From a virus (lineage: Duplodnaviria; Heunggongvirae; Uroviricota; Caudoviricetes): a stretch of 40,212 nt of DNA. The stretch lies in IMG/VR virus record IMGVR_UViG_2541047498_000018. One strand, written 5' to 3'. The notes beneath the pieces were generated by a model. It was not told the origin of the DNA, did not search any database, and saw only the letters and a program-made list of their open reading frames with translations. Below, piece after piece: positions 4,866 through 39,482 of this stretch; positions within the stretch are counted from its first letter, which is position 1, and every line of letters starts with the position of its first letter. Position numbers and translations under genes: made by a program.

Positions 4866-5426
4866 TTATTTTTCCGAAACGCTCGCAGGATAATAACGAT
4901 AAAGGGTTGAAAGGCCGATATCAAAAATAAGTGCCACCTGTCTTCGACTGACACCCCCGGCCAGTAAACGCCCGACCTGCTCGTATTGTTCCTGCGTGAG
5001 ACGACGGGGTCTGCCGCCGGTTCGTCCCCTTTCACGGGCAGCTGCAAGACCAGCCCGTGTCCGTTCGACAATTAATTCACGCTCCATTTCTGCCAGCGCA
5101 CCCATTATGTGAAAAAAGAAGCGCCCCATGGGGGTTGACGTATCAATGTTGTCAGTAAGACTACGAAAATTTATCCCCTGTTGCTGTAATTCATCTGTCA
5201 GCGCAACAAGGTGGCGCATACTGCGCCCCAGCCTGTCCAGTTTCCAGACCATCAGTGTGTCACCGGGTTTTAGTTTCTTCAGTGCCCGCTTCAGTCCCGG
5301 CCGCTGTGTCGTTTTACCACTCATTTTATCTTCAAAAATCTGCTCACATCCTGCACATTCCAGCGCATTTCTTTGTAAACCTGTGTTCTGGTCATTTGTT
5401 GATACGCGTATATAGCCAATCAGCAT
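4866..5426 (-). CDS. gin: Gin serine DNA invertase (Hin/Gin/Cin/Pin resolvase-invertase family)
   Basis: 186 aa starting MLIGYIRVSTNDQ (catalytic Ser) with the conserved DRLGRS and GRFFFH...ALAEMERE motifs and a C-terminal HTH. It lies next to a gix-like site and the invertible segment. Confidence 0.95.
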   Translation of the reverse strand: MLIGYIRVSTNDQNTGLQRNALECAGCEQIFEDKMSGKTTQRPGLKRALKKLKPGDTLMVWKLDRLGRSMRHLVALTDELQQQGINFRSLTDNIDTSTPMGRFFFHIMGALAEMERELIVERTRAGLAAARERGRTGGRPRRLTQEQYEQVGRLLAGGVSRRQVALIFDIGLSTLYRYYPASVSEK

Positions 5427-5480
5427 GTATTTACCTTCCTTAAAAAGAGGTGGAAAGGCCTTTTAAAGCAGATATACGGC

Positions 5481-5506
5481 ATCCCTGAAACCTCGGTTTA
5501 CGGGAT
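5481..5506. other. gix-like recombination site (left border of invertible segment)
   Basis: 26-bp imperfect palindrome ATCCCTGAAACC-TC-GGTTTACGGGAT, 55 bp upstream of the gin start. It resembles the Mu gix/hix family sequence as recalled. Confidence 0.7.
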
Positions 5507-5851
5507 ACTGTAAACAGGGCCGCGAATGCCCTGCCATCGAACGGAGCGGCTGTTGCAGCGAATAAACTCGCCACTCCAAGAAATATTAATGGTGTCCCAT
5601 TTGACGGAACGCAGGATATAAATATTACATCGGGGATGACGCAGTCTGTGGCTGACTCACGTTATGTTCAAAGCATTCGAAGAGGTTCAAGGTCAACGAT
5701 TGGAATGCAATATAATATTTTTGAGGTTCCTGACGGATGCGTACTTACAGGGCTTGATGTCGCTGGTGATGGTAATGCAACGGTAACCGCATATTATCGA
5801 CCTGTTCAGTTTCTGATAGATGGTTCGTGGAAAACAGCTTCCAGCGCATAA
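5501..5851 (+). CDS. Start-less alternative tail-fibre variable C-terminal cassette (S'v-like), expressed only after inversion
   Basis: Open frame directly inside the left gix site on the plus strand. It is homologous to the C-terminal part of S and has no start codon of its own upstream (TGA at 5486 in frame). Confidence 0.7.
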   Translation, partial: RDTVNRAANALPSNGAAVAANKLATPRNINGVPFDGTQDINITSGMTQSVADSRYVQSIRRGSRSTIGMQYNIFEVPDGCVLTGLDVAGDGNATVTAYYRPVQFLIDGSWKTASSA

Positions 5852-5930
5852 AAGTGCAGTAGTTCAAAAAACAGATTATCTGAATAAATATATGATGATT
5901 TTGTCTTTTCAACAAAAACAAGGTGAAATA

Positions 5931-6452
5931 ATGGAGCTTATTAACGTAAAACGATATTACCCGGAACACAAACCCTATGGTGAGGATGTTCAGTATTTCC
6001 AGAGTGAGGACGGAAGGGATTTTTATGAATCTATCCCGCTTTTCACAAAGAAATACAAACTCTGTATTTCGCCTGTAACGGGTATTATCTGCTCTGTTGC
6101 TGAAGATGTCTCTGCTTTATATCCGGCAGGTTTTACTGTTGTTGAAGTGGACGAACTGCCGGAAGGTGTGAATATTGACGGTAACTGGCAGTTTTCTGAT
6201 GGCCTGATATCAAAGGTGCCGGTAAACTGGAAGACGGTTGCTGAAAAGCGCCGCTCATCGCTGCTCCAGGAAGCCAACGAAACTGTGGATGACTGGAAAA
6301 CGGAATTAAAACTGGACATGATTAGCGATGAAAATAAATTACAGCTGACGCGCTGGATGGCGTATATCCGACAGCTTAAAGAAATGCACTTTAATGATAT
6401 TGCCAGTGAGGGGCATTACCAGGCGATTCCCTGGCCGGAAAAACCGGAATAA
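5931..6452 (+). CDS. Tail fibre assembly protein (U'/Tfa family)
   Basis: ATG at 5931 preceded by AAGGTGA. Contains SEDGRDFY near the N-terminus and a W.AY...L...I.WPE.P C-terminus typical of Tfa/U proteins. Co-oriented with the S'v cassette. Confidence 0.8.
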   Translation: MELINVKRYYPEHKPYGEDVQYFQSEDGRDFYESIPLFTKKYKLCISPVTGIICSVAEDVSALYPAGFTVVEVDELPEGVNIDGNWQFSDGLISKVPVNWKTVAEKRRSSLLQEANETVDDWKTELKLDMISDENKLQLTRWMAYIRQLKEMHFNDIASEGHYQAIPWPEKPE

Positions 6453-7958: not shown

Positions 7959-9034
7959 GTGATTTCCCCCACGGTCAGCAACTCTGTATCTCCGGCCATC
8001 ACGGACTTCAGCGGGCTGCGAACTTCAAAATCCTCCAGTCCTTTCACCCCTGCAACAGCCCGCCAGAATGATGAAGGCAATACAAGTCCACCCGGCCGCG
8101 ATTCGTTATAAAGCAGGTCCGTTAATGCCTGTTTTACGGCAGCCTGATTTTCCGGCGTTTTGGGTACAATCCTGATCTCAAACGCCACCGGCTTATTGGT
8201 CAGCTTAAACACGCTGATTGTCGGCCCAAGTGGCTGACCAACGGGCTGGCCCGTCGCCGGATCATCATGACTGCGGATATAATCCGCCACCCGCTTCACA
8301 TCACCTTCTCCGGGGAAAATGTCAGGGTTATTATCCTGAACAAAAGTCACACCAACACTACCCGCCTCAGGCCATTCAGGCTTACACCATGCCCGCGTCA
8401 CGCCCGGTACTTCCCGTGCCCAGCGTTCAAAATCATACTGTGTTCCCCCTGATGGCGGGTTCTGTACCCGGAATACCAGCCTGGACAGCAACTCCGGCAC
8501 CGTTTCCACATCCGCACCACCGGTGAGTCCCGTGCCGGTGACCGTGGCTGTCTGGTTGATGCCCGCCTGTGGCGTGATAAAGGACAGGCGGGTTCCGGTC
8601 GGGGTATTTCCAGCGCGCCCCGCACTTTCCGCCTCCACATTAACATTCAGTGTTCCGGCTTTTCCGGTCGCAGAGCCGGTGATGCGGTACACAACACCAT
8701 CGCTTCGCTGAAGGAGTACGCCTTCCGTGATCCCTGCATCCGTGGTCAGCATCAGTTGTACCGGTCCGTCAGCGCGGGAAGCCGGTTTACGGATGACACC
8801 CCAGAATGCGCAGTGTTTCAGGAGTTCGGCTTCATCAGCTTCTGTCGGAATTATCTGCCGGGAGATCCAGGCCAGATGTTCATGCTCCTGTGCTGACAGA
8901 CCCGCCAGTGCATACGCAATGGCATTCAGGGTGGTTTCATTCACGCCCGGCTGCGAACCGGGCAGGCGCTGGCTGATATCCTGTTGTGTCTGTGTGATCA
9001 GTTGCGCCAGTGGTAAGGGCTGATAAGGCATCAT
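7949..9034 (-). CDS. Baseplate J-like protein (Mu gp47-like)
   Basis: 361-aa ORF in the baseplate block, with the size and position of Mu gp47 / P2 gpJ-family proteins. Confidence 0.7.
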   Translation of the reverse strand: MMPYQPLPLAQLITQTQQDISQRLPGSQPGVNETTLNAIAYALAGLSAQEHEHLAWISRQIIPTEADEAELLKHCAFWGVIRKPASRADGPVQLMLTTDAGITEGVLLQRSDGVVYRITGSATGKAGTLNVNVEAESAGRAGNTPTGTRLSFITPQAGINQTATVTGTGLTGGADVETVPELLSRLVFRVQNPPSGGTQYDFERWAREVPGVTRAWCKPEWPEAGSVGVTFVQDNNPDIFPGEGDVKRVADYIRSHDDPATGQPVGQPLGPTISVFKLTNKPVAFEIRIVPKTPENQAAVKQALTDLLYNESRPGGLVLPSSFWRAVAGVKGLEDFEVRSPLKSVMAGDTELLTVGEITWL

Positions 9035-28757: not shown

Positions 28758-29183
28758 TCAGAAAAGTGGCGGTTGCGTTCTTACCAGATGCAGACGGCGC
28801 TGTTCGCGTATGACGGTATAAATCTGGGTTTCTGACATCCGGTAATGGCGGCGAAGGGATTCAATTTTCTCGCCCCGGTCCCAGCGCGAAAATATCTCAT
28901 TGTTTCGCAGCTCGGCAAAGAGAGATTCCCCGACCGGCAGGTAATAACCCCGTCCGCCCATATAGGCGGCCTGAGCCGCAGCCACCTTGCGTGCCAGTTT
29001 ACCGGCCAGTACCGGCTCAATCCCCTGACGCTGAAGTTCTGCGCCGGTGACTTCAACCAGTTCTGACAGGGTCCGCGGCCAGTTCTTTTTGAGAACATCA
29101 TCAGGGATGTCATCAAGGCGGTCGATAAGGGCGTGCAGTTGCTCACTGTCACCACCAAACATGCTCATCTGAGTTTCTGCCAT
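28758..29183 (-). CDS. mor: Mor/C-family transcription activator (middle/late gene activator)
   Basis: 141 aa with YMGGRGYYLPVG and a C-terminal HTH (MSETQIYTVIREQRR), matching the Mor/C family as recalled. Located between the GemA-like gene and the lysis genes. Confidence 0.7.
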   Translation of the reverse strand: MAETQMSMFGGDSEQLHALIDRLDDIPDDVLKKNWPRTLSELVEVTGAELQRQGIEPVLAGKLARKVAAAQAAYMGGRGYYLPVGESLFAELRNNEIFSRWDRGEKIESLRRHYRMSETQIYTVIREQRRLHLVRTQPPLF

Positions 29184-29252
29184 ATCAGCCTCCGGTTCTC
29201 GCGTTCCCGGTAAGTTTAAAATAAAAATCCCGCGTTGTGGCGGGATTTGGAG

Positions 29253-29762
29253 TTAACGGGGAAGTGATTTTTCATACTGCCTGCAAACGGCGTCATACCC
29301 CATCAGCGTGCGTTCGGGCATTCCCATCGCGGCCAGCATTTTGCGGCGGTGCCATCGCTTGAGACGCTCCAGCACATCTGAGGCCAGGGCGGGGTGTTGC
29401 TCCAGCCACTGCCAGTTTGCCACACCTTCGCCGCCGTTCTGCGCGGCCGTCTGCGATTTCACCCAGCGGTTAAGGGCGGTTTCCGCACCATCGGTGATAA
29501 AGCCCTGCCGGTGCATCACCTTCCAGATGGCGCGAATTTTGGCGGTCACCGTACCCGGTTTTAAGGCCCGGTTAACCGGGTTCTGACGCACTTTAAAACC
29601 GCGTTTTTTGAAAACATCCAGCACGCGGGATAACTCATCCGGTGACATATCCCGGCAGCTGGTTTTGCCGGTAGCTGCCAGCAGCGCGGATGTATAAGTC
29701 TCATCATCCAGGGCAAGCTCGCGCTTTGCCACATGAATGGCGGATATCAGTTTTCCTCTCAT
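29253..29762 (-). CDS. GemA-like regulatory protein (Mu gp16-like, DUF1018-like)
   Basis: 169-aa ORF directly upstream of the Mor/C-family gene, the position of gemA in Mu. Confidence 0.5.
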   Translation of the reverse strand: MRGKLISAIHVAKRELALDDETYTSALLAATGKTSCRDMSPDELSRVLDVFKKRGFKVRQNPVNRALKPGTVTAKIRAIWKVMHRQGFITDGAETALNRWVKSQTAAQNGGEGVANWQWLEQHPALASDVLERLKRWHRRKMLAAMGMPERTLMGYDAVCRQYEKSLPR

Positions 29763-30055
29763 ACCGTATTTACCTTTTTACGGACATGGAAAGCCTTTTC
29801 TGCCTCATCCCACCGGGCATGGTGTGTTGGCGGAATAATCATTATGTGCCAGCCATCTCTGCTTGTTATTCGGCAGAAAAATTCACCGTTATATAACACA
29901 ATGGCCTGCTGAATGAGCGCATCAGCCGCCCGTTCAACCGGATGTCTTTTATCAAAAAAGCAGATGATTTTTCGACATAACCACCGGGTAATAACAAATG
30001 CGCCGAAAAAGGATGTGATATATAAGCACCAGAACAACAGAGAACTATTGTCCAT
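29759..30055 (-). CDS. Hypothetical protein with N-terminal hydrophobic segment
   Basis: 98-aa ORF in the tightly packed early operon (LLFWCLYITSFFGAFVI). Confidence 0.4.
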   Translation of the reverse strand: MDNSSLLFWCLYITSFFGAFVITRWLCRKIICFFDKRHPVERAADALIQQAIVLYNGEFFCRITSRDGWHIMIIPPTHHARWDEAEKAFHVRKKVNTV

Positions 30056-30242
30056 TATCTTTCTCCTTATTCACTCTTCTGCGGCATTCGGCACAGTCAT
30101 CAGGGCTTTCAAATGTATCCGGCTCGCGATTATGAGCCAGATATAACCACCGTCCACATATACTGATATTTTCGCCTGTTTTAAAAAAATGATGCTTCCT
30201 GGCCATTAGTGGCCGCGCCCATCCAGCGGGTAGACTATTCAT
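30045..30242 (-). CDS. Hypothetical small Cys-containing protein
   Basis: 65-aa ORF overlapping its neighbours by a few nt. Contains C...CAEC. Confidence 0.35.
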   Translation of the reverse strand: MNSLPAGWARPLMARKHHFFKTGENISICGRWLYLAHNREPDTFESPDDCAECRRRVNKEKDNGQ

Positions 30243-30570
30243 TTGCTTTATCCTCCATGCTGGACAGAATCATATGTATTAATGTCGGGCGTGGAGATAT
30301 ACGCATTTCATTAAGCGTCTGAAGGGCAGCAACAGCTGCCTGTTTATCGGTGCCTTTGGCAATTTCAGCAAGAGAATGCACAATCCATAACGGGCTTAAC
30401 GCTACGGCTGAATGCAGAATCATGTCATCCATAATAATTTCTGGCATATCCCGTTTGTCACATTCTTTATCCATAAAAGAAACGATTTTTTCTGCATCTT
30501 CCGGTTTCATGCCTCCGGCGATGAGAATTTTACGATATTCATAAGACGATCTTAATTCAATACTCATCAT
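30235..30570 (-). CDS. Hypothetical early protein
   Basis: 111-aa ORF in the early operon. No family recognised. Confidence 0.4.
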   Translation of the reverse strand: MMSIELRSSYEYRKILIAGGMKPEDAEKIVSFMDKECDKRDMPEIIMDDMILHSAVALSPLWIVHSLAEIAKGTDKQAAVAALQTLNEMRISPRPTLIHMILSSMEDKANE

Positions 30571-30582
30571 TCACCTGCCTGT

Positions 30583-30975
30583 TTAATCAGTTTCCAGTGC
30601 TTTGCTACGGGCAACAGCCTCACACTCAAAAAATACCGACTCCGGCACACGCTCCTTTAATTCACGAACAAGAAAATCATTAACGAGTTCATGACGTCTT
30701 ATATTTCTTTCCTTTTCCTCCTGGCGCAATACAGCAAGGCGGTATTCAACAGTCCGGCGTTGTTTCTGAAAGACAGCCAGTGCTTTTCTGGCAGAGTTAC
30801 GCCATGTATCATCGCCACAGGGTTCGTATTCAAGCTGAAATTTAATCTCTTCAATGGTTTCTTTTATTTTTGCCAGCAAGCTAAGACAGTCGCTGATTGT
30901 CTTCAGTTTTTCATTATCAATATAACTTCTCACGCATTCACCTCCCGTCATTCCGGTAAAGCTGAAATATGGCAC
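30583..30975 (-). CDS. Hypothetical early protein
   Basis: 130-aa ORF. True start may be the internal Met near 30954. Confidence 0.4.
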   Translation of the reverse strand: MPYFSFTGMTGGECVRSYIDNEKLKTISDCLSLLAKIKETIEEIKFQLEYEPCGDDTWRNSARKALAVFQKQRRTVEYRLAVLRQEEKERNIRRHELVNDFLVRELKERVPESVFFECEAVARSKALETD

Positions 30976-31259
30976 CAGTGCGTCACCTGTCCGTCCTCAT
31001 CTTCAAGGCAGGCTCCGGTTTCTTCATCAATAAAAAAGCCTTCATACCCCATATGGCCGATGCGCAGTTCCTGTTGGTCACCATACTGAACAATCAGCAC
31101 GACAGCCTCCATATCAGGCGGGAAAGCATCATTCAGTGAATGCCAGGGATAACCGCGCAAATCCCCGAAATAAACACCGGTCAGCGTTCCGCCACAGACC
31201 GGCATTCCGACGGCACACACAAGGGGTTCATCTGATTCAACAAATAATGTCGTTATCAT
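30948..31259 (-). CDS. Hypothetical early protein
   Basis: 103-aa acidic ORF in the early operon. Confidence 0.4.
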   Translation of the reverse strand: MITTLFVESDEPLVCAVGMPVCGGTLTGVYFGDLRGYPWHSLNDAFPPDMEAVVLIVQYGDQQELRIGHMGYEGFFIDEETGACLEDEDGQVTHWCHISALPE

Positions 31260-31807
31260 GGCATTAATTCCCGTAATACAACATCTTCGGCAGTCCGACG
31301 ACGGTGATAAATAAAACTCACCGTGCCCTCGGATAATTCAAATTTCTCGCCGATTTCCCTAAAGGTAAGACGCCGTGGTGATTCAGCATCCCGTAATTCA
31401 CGAATAAGACGAACATCATCGTCAGGTATGCGGGTGAAGGGCAGCAACTCTCCGTATTTTTTCATGCTTACGCCAATATATCGCGCCCGATTGTGGACAG
31501 AATCCCGGTCTCGCCCCAGATATTCTCCTATTTGCTTACCGGTCATTGTTCTGGCATTTTTTCGGATAAATTTATCTTCATCAGGTTTAAATCTGAGGCG
31601 TTTGCATTTGAGCAACTCCGGGTAAGTACCGCGTAATAAAACAATCCGGTTATGTACACCCCAGAAACTTCTTTTTATCCTGACAGCAATATCCTTAACC
31701 GGGGTGGATGGATAAAGCGCAATCAGCAGCGCATCTTCTTCAGGTGTCCATGCGCGAACATGAGCGGGTGCACGGCCTTTTCTCCCCATGGGTTGTAATA
31801 TCATCAT
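31256..31807 (-). CDS. Hypothetical DNA-binding protein with three HTH-like repeats
   Basis: 183 aa with three repeated segments that look like helix-turn-helix units (WTPEEDALLIAL..., FKPDEDKFIRKNARTMTGKQIGEYLG..., RLTFREIGEKFELSEGTVSFIYHRRR). Confidence 0.45.
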   Translation of the reverse strand: MMILQPMGRKGRAPAHVRAWTPEEDALLIALYPSTPVKDIAVRIKRSFWGVHNRIVLLRGTYPELLKCKRLRFKPDEDKFIRKNARTMTGKQIGEYLGRDRDSVHNRARYIGVSMKKYGELLPFTRIPDDDVRLIRELRDAESPRRLTFREIGEKFELSEGTVSFIYHRRRTAEDVVLRELMP

Positions 31808-31810
31808 GCA

Positions 31811-32326
31811 TCACCCCCTGACTCGCTTTTCAGCAGCATAAAACTCATCAGACAGAATTTCGGTCATTTTCTGATTTGCGGGTTTTACGCCGCACTCAAG
31901 GTAAATCACATCGTCAACGCAGAACCACTTCACAGGGCCAAACATGATTGCCGAGAAATCAATACCCAGCCAGAACAACAGTGCATCGGTTCTGGCATAC
32001 GTGACGGGCGAATATTCACGCCACAGACTGTTAAGTTCGTCAGAGGCAACGCGCAGGGCTTTGGGAATACGTGATGTGCGCGGTGTGCAGCTCCAGCCAT
32101 TCGACGCAGTCGGTTTTCGCCATAAGTCGCGATGAAAAGGATATTTGTCATCCATAAAGCGCAGCCCTTTAAAACAAAAGCCACTGATACCGGATACAAA
32201 TACCGACCGGCACGCAACATTCAGCACGGCCTCAAGGCGTTTTGCCTCATCCTTAACTTTCTGGCAGTCCTGCTGATATTTTTGCCACGCGGCCAGCGCG
32301 GAAGGGTTTGATGTTTTAAAGAACAT
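31811..32326 (-). CDS. Hypothetical early protein
   Basis: 171-aa ORF. No family recognised. Confidence 0.4.
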   Translation of the reverse strand: MFFKTSNPSALAAWQKYQQDCQKVKDEAKRLEAVLNVACRSVFVSGISGFCFKGLRFMDDKYPFHRDLWRKPTASNGWSCTPRTSRIPKALRVASDELNSLWREYSPVTYARTDALLFWLGIDFSAIMFGPVKWFCVDDVIYLECGVKPANQKMTEILSDEFYAAEKRVRG

Positions 32327-32859
32327 TACGCCACCTCCGCAGATATCCCGGCAGGCGCGGCCGTCCGGTCAACAATCAGGTAACGCAGAACGCGCGAGGT
32401 GATATTCCAGCCGCTTAAACCGCAGATAATGACACCCAGGCGTATGTCGATATACGCCATCACAAACTGGGGCACGCCTTCTTTCATGGCCTGCTCATCA
32501 ACTTCAGCCACCACATAAACGGTTTCACAGGTCAGAACGCCCTGAGCAAATTCCCACGCCATTGACGGAATATCATGCCCCTCAATCCACGGCAGGGATT
32601 TTCTGAAGCTGCACCACTGAACATCATCAGCCGCACCTTCCTGGCTGCATTTGCGACGAACCGGCTGCACCGGGCGGGGACGCGGAATATCATAAAAACC
32701 GTTACATTCCGTCAGCACCCCGGCATCGACCGCATCACGCAGAAAATAAACCATCGAGGATGGCGGCATATTCATTTTTTCAGCCAGAATGCCGCAGGTC
32801 AGACGCCCGTAAATACTCAGCCAGTTTTTAACCCCTTCAAGCACTTTTGCACCAATCAT
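32326..32859 (-). CDS. Hypothetical early protein
   Basis: 177-aa ORF. No family recognised. Confidence 0.4.
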   Translation of the reverse strand: MIGAKVLEGVKNWLSIYGRLTCGILAEKMNMPPSSMVYFLRDAVDAGVLTECNGFYDIPRPRPVQPVRRKCSQEGAADDVQWCSFRKSLPWIEGHDIPSMAWEFAQGVLTCETVYVVAEVDEQAMKEGVPQFVMAYIDIRLGVIICGLSGWNITSRVLRYLIVDRTAAPAGISAEVA

Positions 32860-32862
32860 GAA

Positions 32863-33405
32863 TTATTCCTCCGTCAGCGCCACATATTCAGAATGTTTAA
32901 TCTCCTGGCATTCTTCAGGAATACCCCCTTTTATTTCCCTGCCATAAGCGCCTACTTTAAACACCACGCACAGGGCATCACGGGAGAGCGACGGGGTCCA
33001 CCAGGAGTCCATGTTAAACATGGAGGGGATTCTCATTACCCCCAGCTTTTCACAGAGCCAGACAAGGAAATCAGGACGCTTTCTTAACTCGCGTTCAGCG
33101 GCTTCAATCATTGCGGCAATCGCCGGTCCTTCAGGGCATGACTCATCAGGTCTGGCAATAAAGCACGGTCCGTCCCCGATAAAAGCCACATCATCGCGCT
33201 TACGCCAGCCCGCAGGCAGAGCACCAGAAAAATAAAACTCACTGATTACGTCCATGGCAAACGGCTTTAAGCGCAATCCGGCAGCGCCTGTATTTTTCAG
33301 TAATGCCCGAAGAATACTGTTGCGTAGCGGTAAAACAGTCTGTTGATATTTGGTGAAATATTTATTTGTCTGCACACGGTCTAATTTGAAATAAAAATAT
33401 GCCAT
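32863..33405 (-). CDS. Hypothetical early protein
   Basis: 180-aa ORF downstream of gam. No family recognised. Confidence 0.4.
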   Translation of the reverse strand: MAYFYFKLDRVQTNKYFTKYQQTVLPLRNSILRALLKNTGAAGLRLKPFAMDVISEFYFSGALPAGWRKRDDVAFIGDGPCFIARPDESCPEGPAIAAMIEAAERELRKRPDFLVWLCEKLGVMRIPSMFNMDSWWTPSLSRDALCVVFKVGAYGREIKGGIPEECQEIKHSEYVALTEE

Positions 33406-33502
33406 ATATCCTGTTCCTTATTTTCAGTTTACAGGCGCAGGCAGTCCCCTGACGCGAGCGCCATACTTAAAACGATGTGATATTTAAAGATTTAATGCGG
33501 TG

Positions 33503-34033
33503 TTATTTATTCAGTCCGGCGTCCTGTTCAAAAGGCTCGACATAAAAACTTTCAGCGCCTTTATTCACCTTAATACCGGCAATGCCTTTCACTGCATCCG
33601 GCTCCGCCAGGACCGCTTCCTTGTTCACTTCCTCTTTCGTGCGGATGAATCGCTCAAGCCCCATACGGCGCAGCATTTCAATCACACCTTCCACATCACG
33701 GCTGACGCTGCATGATGGATTTCCCAGCCGCCATGACACTGTTCCGGTGGTCAGATTGGCTGTTTTGGTTTTGCCGCCGTTCGTCAGCTCATCGCGGTTG
33801 GTTTTGCACCAGTCCTGAATCCCCTTAAAAAGCACTTTGATTTCTTTTTTAAGGTTTTCAATCTGCGGCGTATAACGGGCGGTGATTTCTGCCACTTCAT
33901 CATTCATCGCCGTTTCCAGCCGTAGCGCCTCTCGCTGAATATCGCCCAGGGTACGGATATCGCGGCTGACTTCTTCGCGGGTCTGCGGTGCAGCCTCGGC
34001 TGCGGCCTTTAATTTTGTAACACGTTTAGCCAT
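33503..34033 (-). CDS. gam: Host-nuclease inhibitor protein Gam (Ku-like DNA end-binding protein)
   Basis: 176 aa. Blocks such as GDIQREALRLETAMNDEVAEI, RDELTNGGKTKTANLTTGTVSWR and ERFIRTKEEVNKEA match Mu Gam as recalled. Confidence 0.9.
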   Translation of the reverse strand: MAKRVTKLKAAAEAAPQTREEVSRDIRTLGDIQREALRLETAMNDEVAEITARYTPQIENLKKEIKVLFKGIQDWCKTNRDELTNGGKTKTANLTTGTVSWRLGNPSCSVSRDVEGVIEMLRRMGLERFIRTKEEVNKEAVLAEPDAVKGIAGIKVNKGAESFYVEPFEQDAGLNK

Positions 34034-34044
34034 TTTGTTTTTCC

Positions 34045-34338
34045 TTATTGCAGTGTGCCTGATGCTTTATGCACGCGGTGGTGTTTAATGATGGCATCCG
34101 CCCCAAAAGCCTGTACAGATGCCTGAAATTCCGCTGAGAGAAACTGAATAATTTCAGGACTGTGATACTGGAGAATACTTGCATAAACGCCACAGAGTGA
34201 CGTCGGCCTGTTATTCGTATCACGTTCTGTTTTTACATCCACACCAATCTTTTCATGCACTTCAACACAGTCATTGCCTGCCGGTTTTTCGTCATGCGAA
34301 ACATGCTTAAATTCAAAAATAACGCGTACTTTGCTCAT
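34045..34338 (-). CDS. Hypothetical early protein, paralogue of the adjacent upstream gene
   Basis: Starts MSKVRVIFEFKH..., similar to the upstream MSKVVRIIFEYKEH.... The track ORF starts 27 nt further upstream. Confidence 0.45.
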   Translation of the reverse strand: MSKVRVIFEFKHVSHDEKPAGNDCVEVHEKIGVDVKTERDTNNRPTSLCGVYASILQYHSPEIIQFLSAEFQASVQAFGADAIIKHHRVHKASGTLQ

Positions 34339-34342
34339 GGAA

Positions 34343-34615
34343 TTACCCCTGCTGATTAAATTCATTACCTTTAATAACCCCGGAACGCATGCTCATATCT
34401 TTCATGAGCGCACTGGCTTTCATTGCCACAAGTTCAGCAAAGTCTCTGCTTTCCGCGAGCATAACCACCCCAAAAATCATGGCGGGTCCATCACCTTTCT
34501 GCTTTATCCCGGTTGAACGTATGTCCAGACTTACCCCCATGCGCACTGTTCCATCAGCGTTTTTATGGATAACGTGCTCCTTGTATTCGAAAATAATGCG
34601 TACGACTTTACTCAT
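34343..34615 (-). CDS. Hypothetical early protein, paralogue of the adjacent downstream gene
   Basis: 90-aa ORF, N-terminus MSKVVRIIFEYKEH. Confidence 0.45.
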   Translation of the reverse strand: MSKVVRIIFEYKEHVIHKNADGTVRMGVSLDIRSTGIKQKGDGPAMIFGVVMLAESRDFAELVAMKASALMKDMSMRSGVIKGNEFNQQG

Positions 34616-34893
34616 CCTCTGGTCCTCGTTCTGTTTGGATAACTGACCCGGCGTCTGACCTCACGGCAGAACCGAATCATGGCATTAAAGGCTTCTTCCT
34701 CCGTCACCGCTTCCGGTATCCCCGGAACCAGTAACTGCTCCTGTTCATCACGTCCATGACGCGCCATAACCTCAATCACATGCCGTACCGTGGCAGGCTT
34801 TCCGGCAACTATCGGCAATGCACCTTCCGGCAGGACGTAACCAAACTCAATAAGACCACTCGACCACGCCCATGCAATGAGATTTTTTTTCAC
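34612..34893 (-). CDS. Hypothetical early protein
   Basis: 93-aa ORF in the early operon. No family recognised. Confidence 0.4.
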   Translation of the reverse strand: MKKNLIAWAWSSGLIEFGYVLPEGALPIVAGKPATVRHVIEVMARHGRDEQEQLLVPGIPEAVTEEEAFNAMIRFCREVRRRVSYPNRTRTRG

Positions 34894-34894
34894 C

Positions 34895-35161
34895 TCACAC
34901 CTCCCAGTAAACCGTGCAGCCGCTGATGCGGGTGGCCTTCACACGGCGGCGCAGGCCGTTGGTCTGTATGGTGATTTCAATTTCACCGGTTCCCTGCACG
35001 TTGCCTACCGGCGGCGTGGTTTTCAGTGCAAAACGTTGCGGATAGCGCTTACTGCGTTCCAGTACCGCACCGGCAAGTTCGGTCAGACGGCGCGCGCTGT
35101 TCAGGGAGTCGAATAAATTCATTTTGTTACCGCAGGATTGCATATTCATATAACACCTCAT
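34895..35161 (-). CDS. Hypothetical early protein
   Basis: 88-aa ORF in the early operon. Confidence 0.35.
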   Translation of the reverse strand: MRCYMNMQSCGNKMNLFDSLNSARRLTELAGAVLERSKRYPQRFALKTTPPVGNVQGTGEIEITIQTNGLRRRVKATRISGCTVYWEV

Positions 35162-35389
35162 TTAGCTGACTTGTTTCGCACCAACAGAACGGCATATTCC
35201 GCTGTAAACGTCTGTCGCACCTTCGCGATCAAGTCCGGCAGATATCACCATTCGTGTGCGGTCATTAAATTCAAAAAGTAAATCGCCACATTCTTTATTT
35301 TCGGCCAGTGAAATCACCTTCACGTTATCGAAATTAACCAGGTAAAAGCGTCCGTAAATATCAGGAATATTAAATACCGCCATAATCAC
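35162..35389 (-). CDS. Small early protein immediately after B (position of Mu kil)
   Basis: 75-aa ORF whose start overlaps the B stop. Assigned by position and size only. Confidence 0.35.
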   Translation of the reverse strand: MIMAVFNIPDIYGRFYLVNFDNVKVISLAENKECGDLLFEFNDRTRMVISAGLDREGATDVYSGICRSVGAKQVS

Positions 35390-36318
35390 ACCTGTGAGAG
35401 TAATTCAGGGTTGGTATAAACCTCTTTAAAGGCCGCATTAATATGTTTTTCTGTCAGCGCCGCGCCTTCACCGCTGGCGGTGAGCCACGCCTGGTTAAGC
35501 GTATGTGTCAGAACGCGTAACGCTCCCGGCTTTTCAGCGATAGCCTGCATGACGGCCAGCTCGGCCTCACCACTGATCCCCCACGCCCTGGCAATGGCCA
35601 GCACATCCGCCTTTTTGGCCTTGCGAAGTTGTTTTGTACGGGCAAGACGGCTGAACAGGCGCGATAAATCATCAAAGGCGCGGCGTCCACCTTTAAACAA
35701 TCCGCGCGGGTTACCAATAAGCACCATCCCGATCCCCGTGGCGTCCTGAATTGCCCGGAGTTGCTCCAGACCGTCAATACCCAGATGATCCGCCTCATCC
35801 ACAATCACCAGTCCACGCGTTCCCATCAGGCGACGGCGGATGGCGCGGGATAATGCCCCTTTGTTCGCGCGGGTGTAATCAATCCCCAGCGCATCGGCCA
35901 GCTCCAGCAGACACTCCGTGACGCTGGAGTGCGCGGGTGACAGGGTGATCATCCAGGTGTTTGGTTGCTCCTGGCAGTAATTACGGGCAGTGGCCGTTTT
36001 ACCCACACCCGGTACGCCCACAATAACGTTAATACAGCCCATCAGACGAACCGCCTGAAACAGTGCGCGCAGCTCCTGGACTGTCTGCGTTTCCACAAAC
36101 TGCGGCGGTTCCGGCAGTGCGCTTTGTTTATTCCAGTTTTCATACCAGGAACGCAGGGAAGCAGCCACAGCGGCGTTATCGCCTTTATATTTCCCCTTGC
36201 GGAAAGCCGATAATGTGCCGTCGGAAATTCCCGCCTCTCTGGCGATGGCATACTGCGTCAGTACGCCGCCATCAATAAGTTCATCAATGGTCTTGATTAC
36301 ATCGTTAATATCAGTCAT
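35386..36318 (-). CDS. B: MuB-like AAA+ ATPase (target DNA activator of transposition)
   Basis: 310 aa with an N-terminal HTH region and Walker A motif GVPGVGKT. Immediately downstream of the transposase gene. Confidence 0.9.
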   Translation of the reverse strand: MTDINDVIKTIDELIDGGVLTQYAIAREAGISDGTLSAFRKGKYKGDNAAVAASLRSWYENWNKQSALPEPPQFVETQTVQELRALFQAVRLMGCINVIVGVPGVGKTATARNYCQEQPNTWMITLSPAHSSVTECLLELADALGIDYTRANKGALSRAIRRRLMGTRGLVIVDEADHLGIDGLEQLRAIQDATGIGMVLIGNPRGLFKGGRRAFDDLSRLFSRLARTKQLRKAKKADVLAIARAWGISGEAELAVMQAIAEKPGALRVLTHTLNQAWLTASGEGAALTEKHINAAFKEVYTNPELLSQV

Positions 36319-36389: not shown

Positions 36390-38480
36390 TCAGGCCAGCG
36401 GGTCATTTTCTTTTAATTTCGCTTCCAGCAACTGCAATCCCCGCTGGAAATTACGCTCGTATTCTTCATCAGGTTCATCGTCAGCGACCGGTTGCTGAAC
36501 GGTCACCGTATTACCCACAGGGCGGTATATGTTTTCCAGCCAGGGCTCCTGCGGCTTGTGCTCCAGCACGTTGACAACCTCATCCTCGGCATCACGGATT
36601 TTTTCCTCTGCGCGTTTACGCATGCCTTTAAGGCGTTGCTGCTGTTTGTAGTATTCCGCGCTGACCGGGAAGGCTTCGCGTTTATTGCCGTCCCATACCG
36701 CCTCGCAAATCACGCTGCCATCCAGGCGACGTACGGTAATTCGTTCGGCATCATGAATGTCATAGCTGATAAGCACCTTACGGCCATGCTCGTCACGCAG
36801 CTCGGGCGCGTAGTAAATATTATTCAGCCAGCGTATTTCACAGCGTCTTACAGGGCGTTCCACCATCGGCCGGAACATATCCCGCAGCTCAACATCGGAC
36901 AGCCATTCAATTTCCGTGTCCTCTTCCGCCAGGCGTTTTTTTCTGAACTCCGCCGGGCTGTAATGCTTGCCGTTCGGCTTCACCGGTAATTCATCGTGCG
37001 GCCGGTTGTTGTACCACTCAACACCGTCACGAATGGCATCAATCAGTTCAGACCAGGACGGTAAATCACGCATCGCTGACTGCTGCCGGGCGTTCAGCCG
37101 TTTGCCCTGTTGCAGGGCAGTAAATGCCGAGCGTAAATCGCGGTTGGTTTTGCGTAACGTCTCGCGATCTGCACCTTTCCCGAAATAGGTGCGGTATTTA
37201 CGGGCTATGCGCATCGGTAATGTGCGGTTAAGCCGTTCGATAATGCCTCGTCCCTGCGGATTACCGGCAATCCCGGTCGGGTGATTAATCCCCAGTCGCG
37301 GCAGTATCCCCACAACCTCCTTATCCAGGATGTCGGCGGTTTCCCCGGAGCCGTTATCCGAGTAATACAGAAACGGTTTGCCGTGATGGCGAATGCCGTG
37401 CTGTATGGCACCGGCTACGGCGAAAACATTTTCAGCCAGGTCAAGGCTCCAGCCCACCACAAAGCGCGTGCCACCGTCGATAACAAAGGTCACTTCCGGT
37501 GCAAATGGCCGACCGTGAACCGGGTGTGCGCATTTCAGCTTCATGCCGTGACCGTCACCAATCCAGACATAATTCACCGGCATTCTGGACCAGTCGCGGC
37601 GCGTGAATCCCTCAAGCTGGCGGTATTCACTGCCGGTCACCCGGCCTTTTTGTTTCACCACTTCCGGCAGTTTCTTCATTGCGCGGCGAATGGTGTCATA
37701 AGACGGCATGATATCGAGCATATAAGGCTCATCAGCGTGCCGGTGCTGCCATTCAGCGACAAAATCCTCGTAAGCCTCGGTCATTGGTCGGCCGTTTGAC
37801 TGGCGATACTGCGCCAGAAATTCGGGCAGCCAGTTAATATCTTCGGCTTTTATTTCCTGGCGCTTACCCGGTGCCAGTAAAAGCAGGCGTTCAGCGGCGT
37901 TCTGCGCCTTGTTAAAGGCCGCAATCCAGCGTTTCAGCGTGATTTCACTTAACGCGCGGCTGTTTCCCTTTTTGGCGTTCGCCGTCTCAACCATTGCCAC
38001 AATGCGCTCGTCCAGCTGCGAACGTGCCAGGTTGTCAACGATAAACCGGATAGCCTTCGCACAGCTGAAACCAGGTTGTTGCGCGACTTTCAGAACTTCG
38101 CTGACGATCGCGATTCGTGCATCAGCCACCTGGCGCTGGTTTTCAGTCAGGGCATTAAGGCGTTCGACCATCAGTTGTGGTGATCCGCGATATGCCTCCA
38201 CCGCATCAACCACGGCAGGCGAGCGTCTGGCCTTTGTCACCACTGGAGCCGGTGATTCATCGACTTTTTGAGTCATCAGTTGCAGGGCGTAGCGTTCACG
38301 TAATGCCTGCTGCGTCACTTCAGGTAAACAGTCGATGCTGTATTCAGTTGCTTTAGAGCCTGAGCGACGACGGGAACAACAGCTTTTCCCTTGTACGTAA
38401 CGTTGTAATGCCTGGCGAATACCTTTTGTTGTAGCAGGCATTCCGGGCGCGCCAATCAGTTCTTTTGCAATGACATACAT
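36390..38480 (-). CDS. A: MuA-like DDE transposase
   Basis: 696-aa ORF immediately after ner, at the Mu A position and size (Mu A is 663 aa). Contains a DGHG motif consistent with a DDE catalytic core. Confidence 0.93.
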   Translation of the reverse strand: MYVIAKELIGAPGMPATTKGIRQALQRYVQGKSCCSRRRSGSKATEYSIDCLPEVTQQALRERYALQLMTQKVDESPAPVVTKARRSPAVVDAVEAYRGSPQLMVERLNALTENQRQVADARIAIVSEVLKVAQQPGFSCAKAIRFIVDNLARSQLDERIVAMVETANAKKGNSRALSEITLKRWIAAFNKAQNAAERLLLLAPGKRQEIKAEDINWLPEFLAQYRQSNGRPMTEAYEDFVAEWQHRHADEPYMLDIMPSYDTIRRAMKKLPEVVKQKGRVTGSEYRQLEGFTRRDWSRMPVNYVWIGDGHGMKLKCAHPVHGRPFAPEVTFVIDGGTRFVVGWSLDLAENVFAVAGAIQHGIRHHGKPFLYYSDNGSGETADILDKEVVGILPRLGINHPTGIAGNPQGRGIIERLNRTLPMRIARKYRTYFGKGADRETLRKTNRDLRSAFTALQQGKRLNARQQSAMRDLPSWSELIDAIRDGVEWYNNRPHDELPVKPNGKHYSPAEFRKKRLAEEDTEIEWLSDVELRDMFRPMVERPVRRCEIRWLNNIYYAPELRDEHGRKVLISYDIHDAERITVRRLDGSVICEAVWDGNKREAFPVSAEYYKQQQRLKGMRKRAEEKIRDAEDEVVNVLEHKPQEPWLENIYRPVGNTVTVQQPVADDEPDEEYERNFQRGLQLLEAKLKENDPLA

Positions 38481-38481
38481 A

Positions 38482-38730
38482 TCATGACGCCTTTCTCATA
38501 TAGCTCTTAACCTGGTATCGACTGGGCCAGATTTCTTCAGGCGATACCCCAAGAGCATCAGCAATTATTTGCTGATACGGTCGGCAAGGAGTACGTAATA
38601 CGCTTTTCAGCGAATCCCTGCTGTAACCAGCCTTTAAAGATAAAGAGCGCAGTGATAAGCCAGCCATGTGTAAGCGCGCCTTGATGATTTCAGGCGGCCA
38701 ATCGTGATCTGAAACTTCTCTTCTACTCAT
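38482..38730 (-). CDS. ner: Ner-like DNA-binding regulator (Ner/Nlp family)
   Basis: 82 aa with QIIADALGVSPEEIWPSRY, resembling the Mu Ner C-terminal region as recalled. Divergent from the repressor gene. Confidence 0.8.
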   Translation of the reverse strand: MSRREVSDHDWPPEIIKARLHMAGLSLRSLSLKAGYSRDSLKSVLRTPCRPYQQIIADALGVSPEEIWPSRYQVKSYMRKAS

Positions 38731-38897: not shown

Positions 38898-39482
38898 ATG
38901 AACATGAAAAACAGTTCTTTTCTCGACGAAGGAAAAGAACCAGTGATCGAACGGATTTTTCGTCTTGCAGAGCGTTACAAATCGAGAAGTGAGGCGGCTA
39001 GAGCATGGGGAATAAACGTTCAGACATTGCAGAACTACTACAAAAGGAGAAACAATCAGCCGCCACCACAACCAAGAAAGCACCATCTCCAGAACATTGC
39101 AGAAAGAGAACATGTATCTATGGAGTGGCTAGTCAATGGTTATGGTGATGAGCCAGGCATGAAAAAAGAACCAATTGAACAAACAAAAAGAACAAAAAAA
39201 CAAAGAATTGATGATAGTGATTCCATCATCATGAGGGCGTGGGACTCGCTAACTTCATCTGAACAAGAGATTTTGTCCAACTTATTGATCAGAAAAGGGG
39301 CCGAACTACTAACCGTTTTGCTTGATACAGATATTCAAAAACTGCACTCATTGAGCGGAGTCAAAAGAGCACTAGCATTGAGTCTACAAGAGTTACCCGA
39401 TGATACTGTAAGAGAGATTTATGAAGAATGTGAAGCTAAGGTTAATCATTTAAATGTAACCCAGAAAAAGGCTGGTGCGTAA
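38898..39482 (+). CDS. c: Lysogeny repressor (c-like), HTH DNA-binding protein
   Basis: ATG at 38898 (MNMKNSS...). The track ORF starts 129 nt upstream and would run through the operator region. Divergent from ner-A-B at the prophage left end. HTH-like segment RSEAARAWGINVQTLQNYY. Confidence 0.7.
   Translation: MNMKNSSFLDEGKEPVIERIFRLAERYKSRSEAARAWGINVQTLQNYYKRRNNQPPPQPRKHHLQNIAEREHVSMEWLVNGYGDEPGMKKEPIEQTKRTKKQRIDDSDSIIMRAWDSLTSSEQEILSNLLIRKGAELLTVLLDTDIQKLHSLSGVKRALALSLQELPDDTVREIYEECEAKVNHLNVTQKKAGA

Follow-up and report, generated by a model that had tools for sequence, protein, structure and literature searches.

The early region and its gene content

The window analysed here is the whole 40,212-nt stretch of IMG/VR virus record IMGVR_UViG_2541047498_000018, and its segment at nt 29759–35389 can be assigned with high confidence to the semi-essential early (SEE) region of an Sp18-type, Mu-like prophage of Escherichia coli. 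The segment carries fifteen co-oriented small open reading frames (ORFs) on the minus strand, numbered O1 to O15 from the transposition gene B towards gemA, and is about 97% coding. Five of the ORFs have counterparts in phage Mu while ten do not, and the block is a mosaic of cassettes and alleles exchanged between sister prophages. It represents a known kind of region within a known prophage lineage, as an early block of small, poorly conserved genes is common to all Mu-like phages; the SEE regions of transposable phages have been described as long, poorly conserved runs of small uncharacterised proteins (PMC8705779). E. coli O157:H7 Sakai is described as having Sp18 as its sole Mu-like prophage, predicted to be intact (PMC2669165). 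We infer that the window prophage belongs to this type. Across the interval, DNA identity with the Mu-like prophages of O157:H7 and of bovine E. coli strains is 99.9%. This prophage is already present in hundreds of sequenced E. coli genomes, where its genes are called hypothetical, and what is gained here is a corrected map of fifteen genes in which the five of Mu type are separated from the ten that are lineage-specific.

Several lines of evidence show that the ORFs are real genes. Each is preceded by a Shine-Dalgarno-like sequence, five of the junctions overlap by 1–11 nt, and the sole gap longer than 15 nt is one of 97 nt after gam. All fifteen products match a PHROG family (E values from 7e-32 to 1.7e-104), whereas the six longest ORFs on the opposite (plus) strand of the interval, used as a control, gave no PHROG match. 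A RefSeq E. coli chromosome with 99.9% identity carries annotations for the same fifteen genes.

The upstream boundary is the transposition ATPase gene B (nt 35386–36318; PF09077, E = 2.5e-25, and AAA_22) and the downstream boundary is gemA (nt 29253–29762; PF06252, E = 3.2e-30), whose product shares 44% identity with Mu GemA. On the minus strand the order is ner (nt 38482–38730), the transposase gene A (nt 36390–38480), B, the fifteen ORFs, gemA and mor (nt 28758–29183), followed by lysozyme, which is the Mu order; a repressor gene lies on the plus strand at about nt 38898–39482. The first-pass annotation of this DNA, made from the sequence alone, had described a Mu-type semi-essential early block of tightly packed small minus-strand ORFs between B and a GemA-like gene. 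This description stands, coordinates included, as the block is found within the early gene run and is co-oriented with ner-A-B. The count of about 17 genes given there is corrected to fifteen. It is also the case, as had been stated, that most of the products have no known function, and the ten ORFs that lack a Mu counterpart mean that the block is not explained throughout by known Mu early functions. The statement that only Gam could be recognised with confidence was too pessimistic, as Kil, the Mu proteins gp11 and gp12, and a gp9-related protein are recognisable as well.

Genes with Mu counterparts

Each product was compared with the early proteins of Mu (Mu record, locus L001). The clearest case is O6 (nt 33503–34033), which encodes Gam, a DNA-end-binding protein that blocks host exonuclease. 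It matches PF07352 (E = 1.5e-41), with residues 19–167 covering positions 1–149 of the 149-position profile, and is 57% identical to Mu Gam over its full length. O8 (nt 32326–32859) is a homologue of Mu gp11 (67% identity; PF25754, Gp11_C, E = 8e-40; phrog_1949, E = 1.7e-104), and the adjoining O9 (nt 31811–32326) is a homologue of Mu gp12 (54% identity; phrog_2314, E = 1.4e-85). A Salmonella homologue that is 53% identical to O9 carries PF26885 (Phage_Mu_Gp12). O2 (nt 34895–35161; 84 aa from an ATG at 35149) is the Kil homologue. It falls in phrog_2679, 'Kil protein for bacterial septation inhibition' (E = 7.8e-46), and shows a weak match to Mu Kil itself (33% identity over 39 aa, E = 1.7e-4), while a Salmonella homologue 73% identical to O2 carries PF26843 (Kil_protein).

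The copy of Pfam used in this study returned nothing for O2 or O9, despite the presence of PF26843 and PF26885 on these close homologues. It probably lacks these recent models, so that the absence of a Pfam match, wherever it is reported below, understates what is recognisable.

The fifth gene, O10 (nt 31256–31807), specifies a basic protein of 183 aa (pI 10.2) with three putative Myb/SANT-like helix-turn-helix (HTH) repeats. It belongs to phrog_323, 'transcriptional regulator' (E = 6.3e-58), and residues 66–166 match Mu gp9 (32% identity, E = 3.6e-8). All seven of its Pfam matches are below the gathering score, the best being Sigma70_r4 at 23.3 bits against a cutoff of 24.1, and they include HTH models at three positions: Myb at residues 19–32, HTH_11 at 80–106 and Sigma70_r4 at 145–169. 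The single NCBIfam match in the block is likewise a sub-threshold sigma-70 hit to O10. The 'P-[DE]-[DE]-D ... HTH' repeats are weakly alike (z = 3.5 for the first and second, 3.4 for the second and third), and the RefSeq names include 'SANT/Myb-like DNA-binding domain-containing protein'. The three HTH-like repeats proposed earlier for this protein are borne out by the three Pfam positions and the repeat scores.

Mosaic structure and prevalence

To assess variation, 80 viral contigs were gathered through Gam and every window ORF was scored in each of them; 41 of these contigs make up the E. coli lineage. The comparison of gene content with other Mu-like prophages, which had been suggested as a way to find variable cassettes, did reveal them. 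Within the E. coli lineage O3 is either present or absent, and the slot after gam is occupied by O7, by a canonical DUF5420 protein of 196 aa (23% identical) or by no gene. Two alleles each were found of O5 (about 92 or 60% identical), O10 (about 94 or 72%) and O15 (about 97 or 49%). For O5 and O15 the alleles agree at the N-terminus and have diverged over the remainder; for O15 the N-terminal helix is near-identical and the C-terminal domain about 49% identical. The segment from O10 to gemA shows at least five arrangements, with alternatives that include a hydrophobic ORF of 61 aa and a 100-aa protein of phrog_6075. Related contigs sometimes carry an extra gene of 139 aa between O1 and kil.

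Complete chromosomes show a more restricted pattern. Of 5426 complete E. coli genomes, 233 contain B, and these were taken as carriers. O3 is present in about 219 and O7 in 214 of the 233, while the full O11–O15 block is present in only 114, and for this reason the distal O11–O15 segment is identified as the only strongly variable part of the block in complete genomes.

O7 and the DUF5420 superfamily

O7 (nt 32863–33405) encodes a protein of 180 aa and occupies the swappable slot after gam. A word-indexed search returned only enterobacterial relatives, together with one 38%-identical Salmonella protein named DUF5420, and a HMMER profile search across 1.84 billion representatives recovered 26 clusters. 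The family alignment shows the motifs YFKxD, PDRRYKEGK, PxFSxW and a C-terminal EIKxSEFxALTEE. PF17457 (DUF5420) is matched by 17 of the 28 aligned proteins of the O7 family, and O7 gives a BLAST E value of 4.6e-21 to a Salmonella DUF5420 protein that is Pfam-positive. On the basis of these two sequence comparisons, O7 is classified as a divergent member of the DUF5420 superfamily: its family has the DUF5420 motifs, but O7 alone misses the Pfam model and returned nothing at E ≤ 10 from Pfam, PF17457 included. DUF5420 is a family without known function, and no mention of it was found in the literature searched.

Profile comparison by hhalign suggests that O7 is perhaps distantly related to gp12. 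Shallow alignments of the two families gave a probability of 0.3%, and the 28-sequence alignment gave 64% (P = 6.6e-5), with a collinear match over 155 columns that is near full length. A close paralogy of O7 with gp12 or gp11 was considered and rejected, as the shallow alignments gave it no support and the deeper profile gave a modest signal for gp12 and none for gp11. An AlphaFold2 model of O7 built with the family alignment is confident (pLDDT 92.7, pTM 0.84). Neither the model nor a sequence-profile search detected a significant relative among solved structures, and Foldseek against predicted viral structures returned only uncharacterised phage proteins, so that DUF5420 proteins model confidently into a fold without a solved relative.

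O3 and the 'host nuclease inhibitor' label

O3 (nt 34612–34893; 93 aa) belongs to a large family labelled 'host nuclease inhibitor'. Among the related viral contigs it is the only accessory ORF with homologues beyond the E. coli lineage, and these usually adjoin gam. A word-index search with the single sequence gave only near-identical proteins, and a profile was therefore seeded with distant copies from the viral contigs. This brought in at least 1485 clusters, with sources in Pseudomonas, Enterobacteriaceae, Burkholderia and Bordetella; almost every one bears the name 'host nuclease inhibitor protein', and a Pfam domain is absent from all. The same label is found on the small ORF beside gam in the records of phages D3112, MP38 and the JBD phages. 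The O3 homologue of BcepMigl, a Burkholderia podovirus that is non-transposable, lies away from any annotated gam.

No experiment was found behind the name, and O3 shows no significant similarity to Mu Gam and no Gam or other Pfam domain. Homology to a proven nuclease inhibitor was thus not found, and this widespread label is flagged here as lacking any support that could be located. The top structural matches of the predicted O3 model are MbtH-like proteins, which are small partners of the adenylation domains in non-ribosomal peptide synthetases. O3 shares 9–14% sequence identity with them, has an extra C-terminal helix, lacks an MbtH signature or Pfam match, and is found in a genomic context unrelated to peptide synthetases. 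As judged from the model, the resemblance is one of fold and not of family membership, and a small protein-binding adaptor is the more likely function, rather than a nuclease inhibitor. A sequence-profile search of solved structures with O3 gave nothing significant.

Lineage-restricted genes

The remaining eight ORFs (O1, O4, O5 and O11–O15) are lineage-restricted orphans. For the ten ORFs without a Mu counterpart, that is these eight together with O3 and O7, Pfam searches returned nothing at E ≤ 10 (O1–O13) or E ≤ 1 (O14 and O15).

O1 (nt 35162–35389) lies between B and kil and is 73–75 aa in length, depending upon whether the ATG at 35383 used in RefSeq or the GTG at 35389 is taken as the start. 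It belongs to phrog_3375, of unknown function (E = 8.9e-47), and has no Pfam or NCBIfam match; in Salmonella Mu-like prophages a homologue with 55% identity occupies the equivalent position. In one IMG/VR contig (L039, nt 5171–5422) the N-terminus of O1 is fused in frame to the C-terminus of O3, with deletion of kil. An apparent homology between O1 and O3 (hhalign probability 98%) was an artefact of the presence of this fusion in both alignments, and fell to 0.2% when L039 was left out.

O4 (nt 34343–34615) is an orphan of 90 aa (phrog_4107, E = 1.1e-61), and O5 (nt 34045–34365) specifies 97 aa from an ATG at 34338 (phrog_2230, E = 2.2e-39). Paralogy of O4 and O5 was not accepted, as only the first 30 or so residues align (hhalign probability 67%), which makes it a weak lead.

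O11 (nt 30948–31259) encodes a very acidic protein of 103 aa (phrog_6925, E = 1.9e-52) with a pI of 4.05, 18 acidic (D + E) and two basic (K + R) residues, and a net charge of about −16. It is 82–84% identical between E. coli and Salmonella prophages (L085, nt 8179–8505; L087, nt 8197–8523). In the same comparison the values for Gam (77%), GemA (64%), gp11 (63%) and gp12 (53%) were all lower. A UniRef cluster label of DUF551 for O11 was discarded, as O11, a 110-aa variant and the Salmonella homologue all lacked a Pfam match at E ≤ 1 to 10. The next gene, O12 (nt 30583–30975; 116 aa from a GTG at 30933; phrog_6158, E = 1.8e-57), is rich in charged residues (23 D + E, 23 K + R) and is present in only 12 related loci. 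O13 (nt 30235–30570) specifies an acidic protein of 110 aa (phrog_1988, E = 5.7e-45) with a 42%-identical homologue in a Salmonella prophage.

The last two genes had been singled out in the first-pass annotation as coding for small Cys-containing and membrane proteins, and the sequences show such features. O14 (nt 30045–30242; 65 aa; phrog_2358, E = 4.7e-34) has three cysteines. Among its relatives, locus L004 has Arg in place of Cys29 and L023 has a frameshift in the gene; a zinc site is not well supported, as the Arg replacement leaves one of the three cysteines unconserved. O15 (nt 29759–30055; 98 aa; phrog_17269, E = 7.2e-32) has one predicted N-terminal membrane helix, corresponding to a single hydrophobic segment in which the Kyte-Doolittle mean over 19 residues peaks at 1.82 at residue 5.

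Comparison with Mu and with other Mu-like prophages

The SEE region of Mu, which runs from kil to gp15/gp54 between B and gemA, has the same position, strand and dense packing as the window block. Kil, Gam, gp11, gp12, the gp9-related HTH protein and a non-coding spacer after gam are common to both. Two-thirds of the window genes (10 of 15) are without a Mu counterpart and, conversely, Mu gp6, gp7, gp8, gp13, gp14 and gp54 are absent from the window block. The window differs further in having the extra gene O1 between B and kil, a DUF5420-type gene (O7) inserted after gam, and a gp9-like gene (O10) that is twice as long and follows gp12, whereas Mu gp9 precedes gam. In the window a terminator-like hairpin separates gemA from mor, while in Mu these two genes overlap and the predicted terminator comes after mor.

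Sp18-type relatives in other E. coli strains differ from each other by cassette swaps, mainly within O11–O15. Mu-like prophages of Salmonella enterica (L085–L087) show the order B, O1-like, kil, O3-like, gam, O7-like and gp11, continuing with gp12 or a Myb-like gene, O11-like and so on to gemA and mor, at identities of 29–84%. Ahead of gp11 and gp12 these prophages have a tandem pair made up of an O7-like gene and a canonical DUF5420 gene, and their genes before gemA are different, such as one for a 317-aa protein. In some of them a DUF3164 protein is found in place of Gam: L085 and L086 (nt 5275–5913 in each) specify a DUF3164 protein of 212 aa in the gam slot, and the flanking genes are unchanged. 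This suggests that the DUF3164 protein is a functional substitute for Gam.

Possible roles of the early block

By analogy with Mu, the fifteen genes would form an early operon together with ner, A, B and gemA, read from the early promoter. Several of the genes have overlapping stop and start codons, and the terminator-like hairpin follows gemA. Following induction or infection the block would be made early; Kil would block host cell division and Gam would cap linear DNA ends against RecBCD, as expected from their Mu homologues. The gp11 and gp12 homologues, the gp9-like protein with three HTH repeats, O7 and O3 would be Mu-type partners conserved in the block, and the eight orphans are lineage-restricted accessory genes exchanged between related prophages as cassettes and alleles. 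We infer that together the orphans most likely serve to take over the host, or to raise fitness under certain conditions early in lytic growth, through DNA-end handling, exclusion or counter-defence.

A number of points weigh against this interpretation. The operon structure and its timing are carried over from Mu. Unlike Mu, the window has a hairpin between gemA and mor, and expression of Mor may therefore differ. Host takeover or counter-defence, as a role for the ten ORFs without a Mu counterpart, is a prior derived from position, size and mosaicism. O3 and O7 occur in over 90% of carrier genomes and O11 exceeds Gam in cross-genus conservation, which agrees better with conserved roles internal to the phage than with arms-race genes, and strong variability in complete genomes is confined to O11–O15.

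The first-pass annotation had proposed the block as the most likely place in the window for anti-restriction or anti-defence proteins. As a hunting ground this is reasonable, and by analogy it is a plausible prior for which no positive evidence was obtained. PADLOC defence models gave no match to any of the ten ORFs without a Mu counterpart, and none of the ten matched a known anti-restriction or anti-defence family in Pfam, a database whose anti-restriction content was unverified, no dedicated anti-defence search having been made. Single sequences of O8, O10 and O11 detected no significant relative among solved structures. Literature searches by six RefSeq accessions of block proteins found no paper, and a search on Mu gp11 and gp12 found nothing relevant. 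In JBD30, a Mu-like phage of Pseudomonas, Gam and GemA each confer sensitivity to Gabija on the phage (bioRxiv 10.1101/2025.08.30.673261), and in B3-like transposable phages an early-operon gene beside ner gives superinfection exclusion (PMC9936078). Mu-type early genes therefore touch host immunity, which provides a prior and not evidence on the ORFs of this block.

Three alternative or narrower explanations were weighed against host takeover and conditional fitness. It is possible, if on balance doubtful, that at least one lineage-specific ORF is a genuine inhibitor of host defence, whether of restriction-modification, a RecBCD-linked system, Gabija, CRISPR or another system. The best candidates would be the hypervariable O11–O15 products, among them O11, which is acidic enough to be a possible DNA mimic, and O7 or O3 beside gam. 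Their Mu-type early position, small size, narrow taxonomic range and swapping as cassettes or alleles are in keeping with such a role, as are the defence interactions of Gam and GemA in JBD30 and the exclusion gene next to ner in B3-like phages. Set against these are the lack of a Pfam family at permissive thresholds, of a solved-structure relative for the ORFs searched and of any literature found that mentions the proteins, and the fact that O3, O7 and O11 are well conserved and not rapidly turning over. The same conservation lends itself to a different explanation, tentative to a similar degree, in which these three non-Mu proteins are phage-internal helpers of transposition-replication or of DNA-end processing, acting with Gam, gp11 and gp12 and not upon host immunity. 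O7 or its DUF5420 relatives directly follow gam or the DUF3164 substitute and form the tandem pair in Salmonella, and O7 may be distantly related to gp12; in Mu-like phages of Pseudomonas and elsewhere, O3 homologues adjoin gam; and the close identity of O11 between E. coli and Salmonella prophages agrees with an internal role. Mu lacks all three, however, so none of them is needed for replication of the Mu type; some sister prophages lack O7 or have another gene in its place, and the O3 family also occurs in the non-transposable BcepMigl, away from annotated gam.

By far the least probable explanation is that some of the small ORFs are non-functional, being either spurious calls or the decaying remains of genes in a prophage that has been domesticated. 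Related contigs do include a frameshifted O14 (L023), the fusion of O1 and O3 that deletes kil (L039) and truncated copies, but in the window all fifteen ORFs are intact and have ribosome-binding sites, all fall in PHROG families at E = 7e-32 or better, and most have Salmonella prophage homologues at 29–84% identity, while the opposite-strand ORFs are without family support. A further, compound explanation appears rather improbable, slightly more so than either of the first two: that the swappable slots (after gam, and O11–O15) encode new counter-defence or exclusion proteins and, at the same time, that DUF5420 proteins and gp12 are a new class of modulators of DNA ends or of the RecBCD pathway, working beside Gam. 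Candidates within it would be the acidic, DNA-mimic-like O11 and the membrane-anchored O15 with its fast-diverging soluble domain. In any case, a screen for counter-defence or exclusion would sensibly begin with the swapped slots, and the places to look are the slot after gam, the O11–O15 segment and the divergent alleles of O5, O10 and O15.

Non-coding elements

Two non-coding elements on the minus strand accompany the block. The spacer after gam (nt 33406–33502) is conserved and contains a short hairpin, GGCGC...GCGCC, which shows one compensatory change in Salmonella and has no T-run behind it. The spacer is kept in Mu (L001, nt 6326–6423), where it is unannotated in the GenBank record, in a Salmonella prophage (L087, about nt 5895–6000) and in E. 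coli variants, and it is conserved whichever gene comes next, be it O7, the DUF5420 gene or gp11. The case for a structured RNA was judged insufficient (folding z-score −0.10, one compensatory pair, no Rfam match), and the spacer could serve to bind a protein, as an internal promoter or as a site of processing. The strong terminator-like hairpin (nt 29225–29248) lies 5 nt past the gemA stop codon, upstream of mor, and consists of a 9-bp stem with five G-C pairs followed by TTATTTT.

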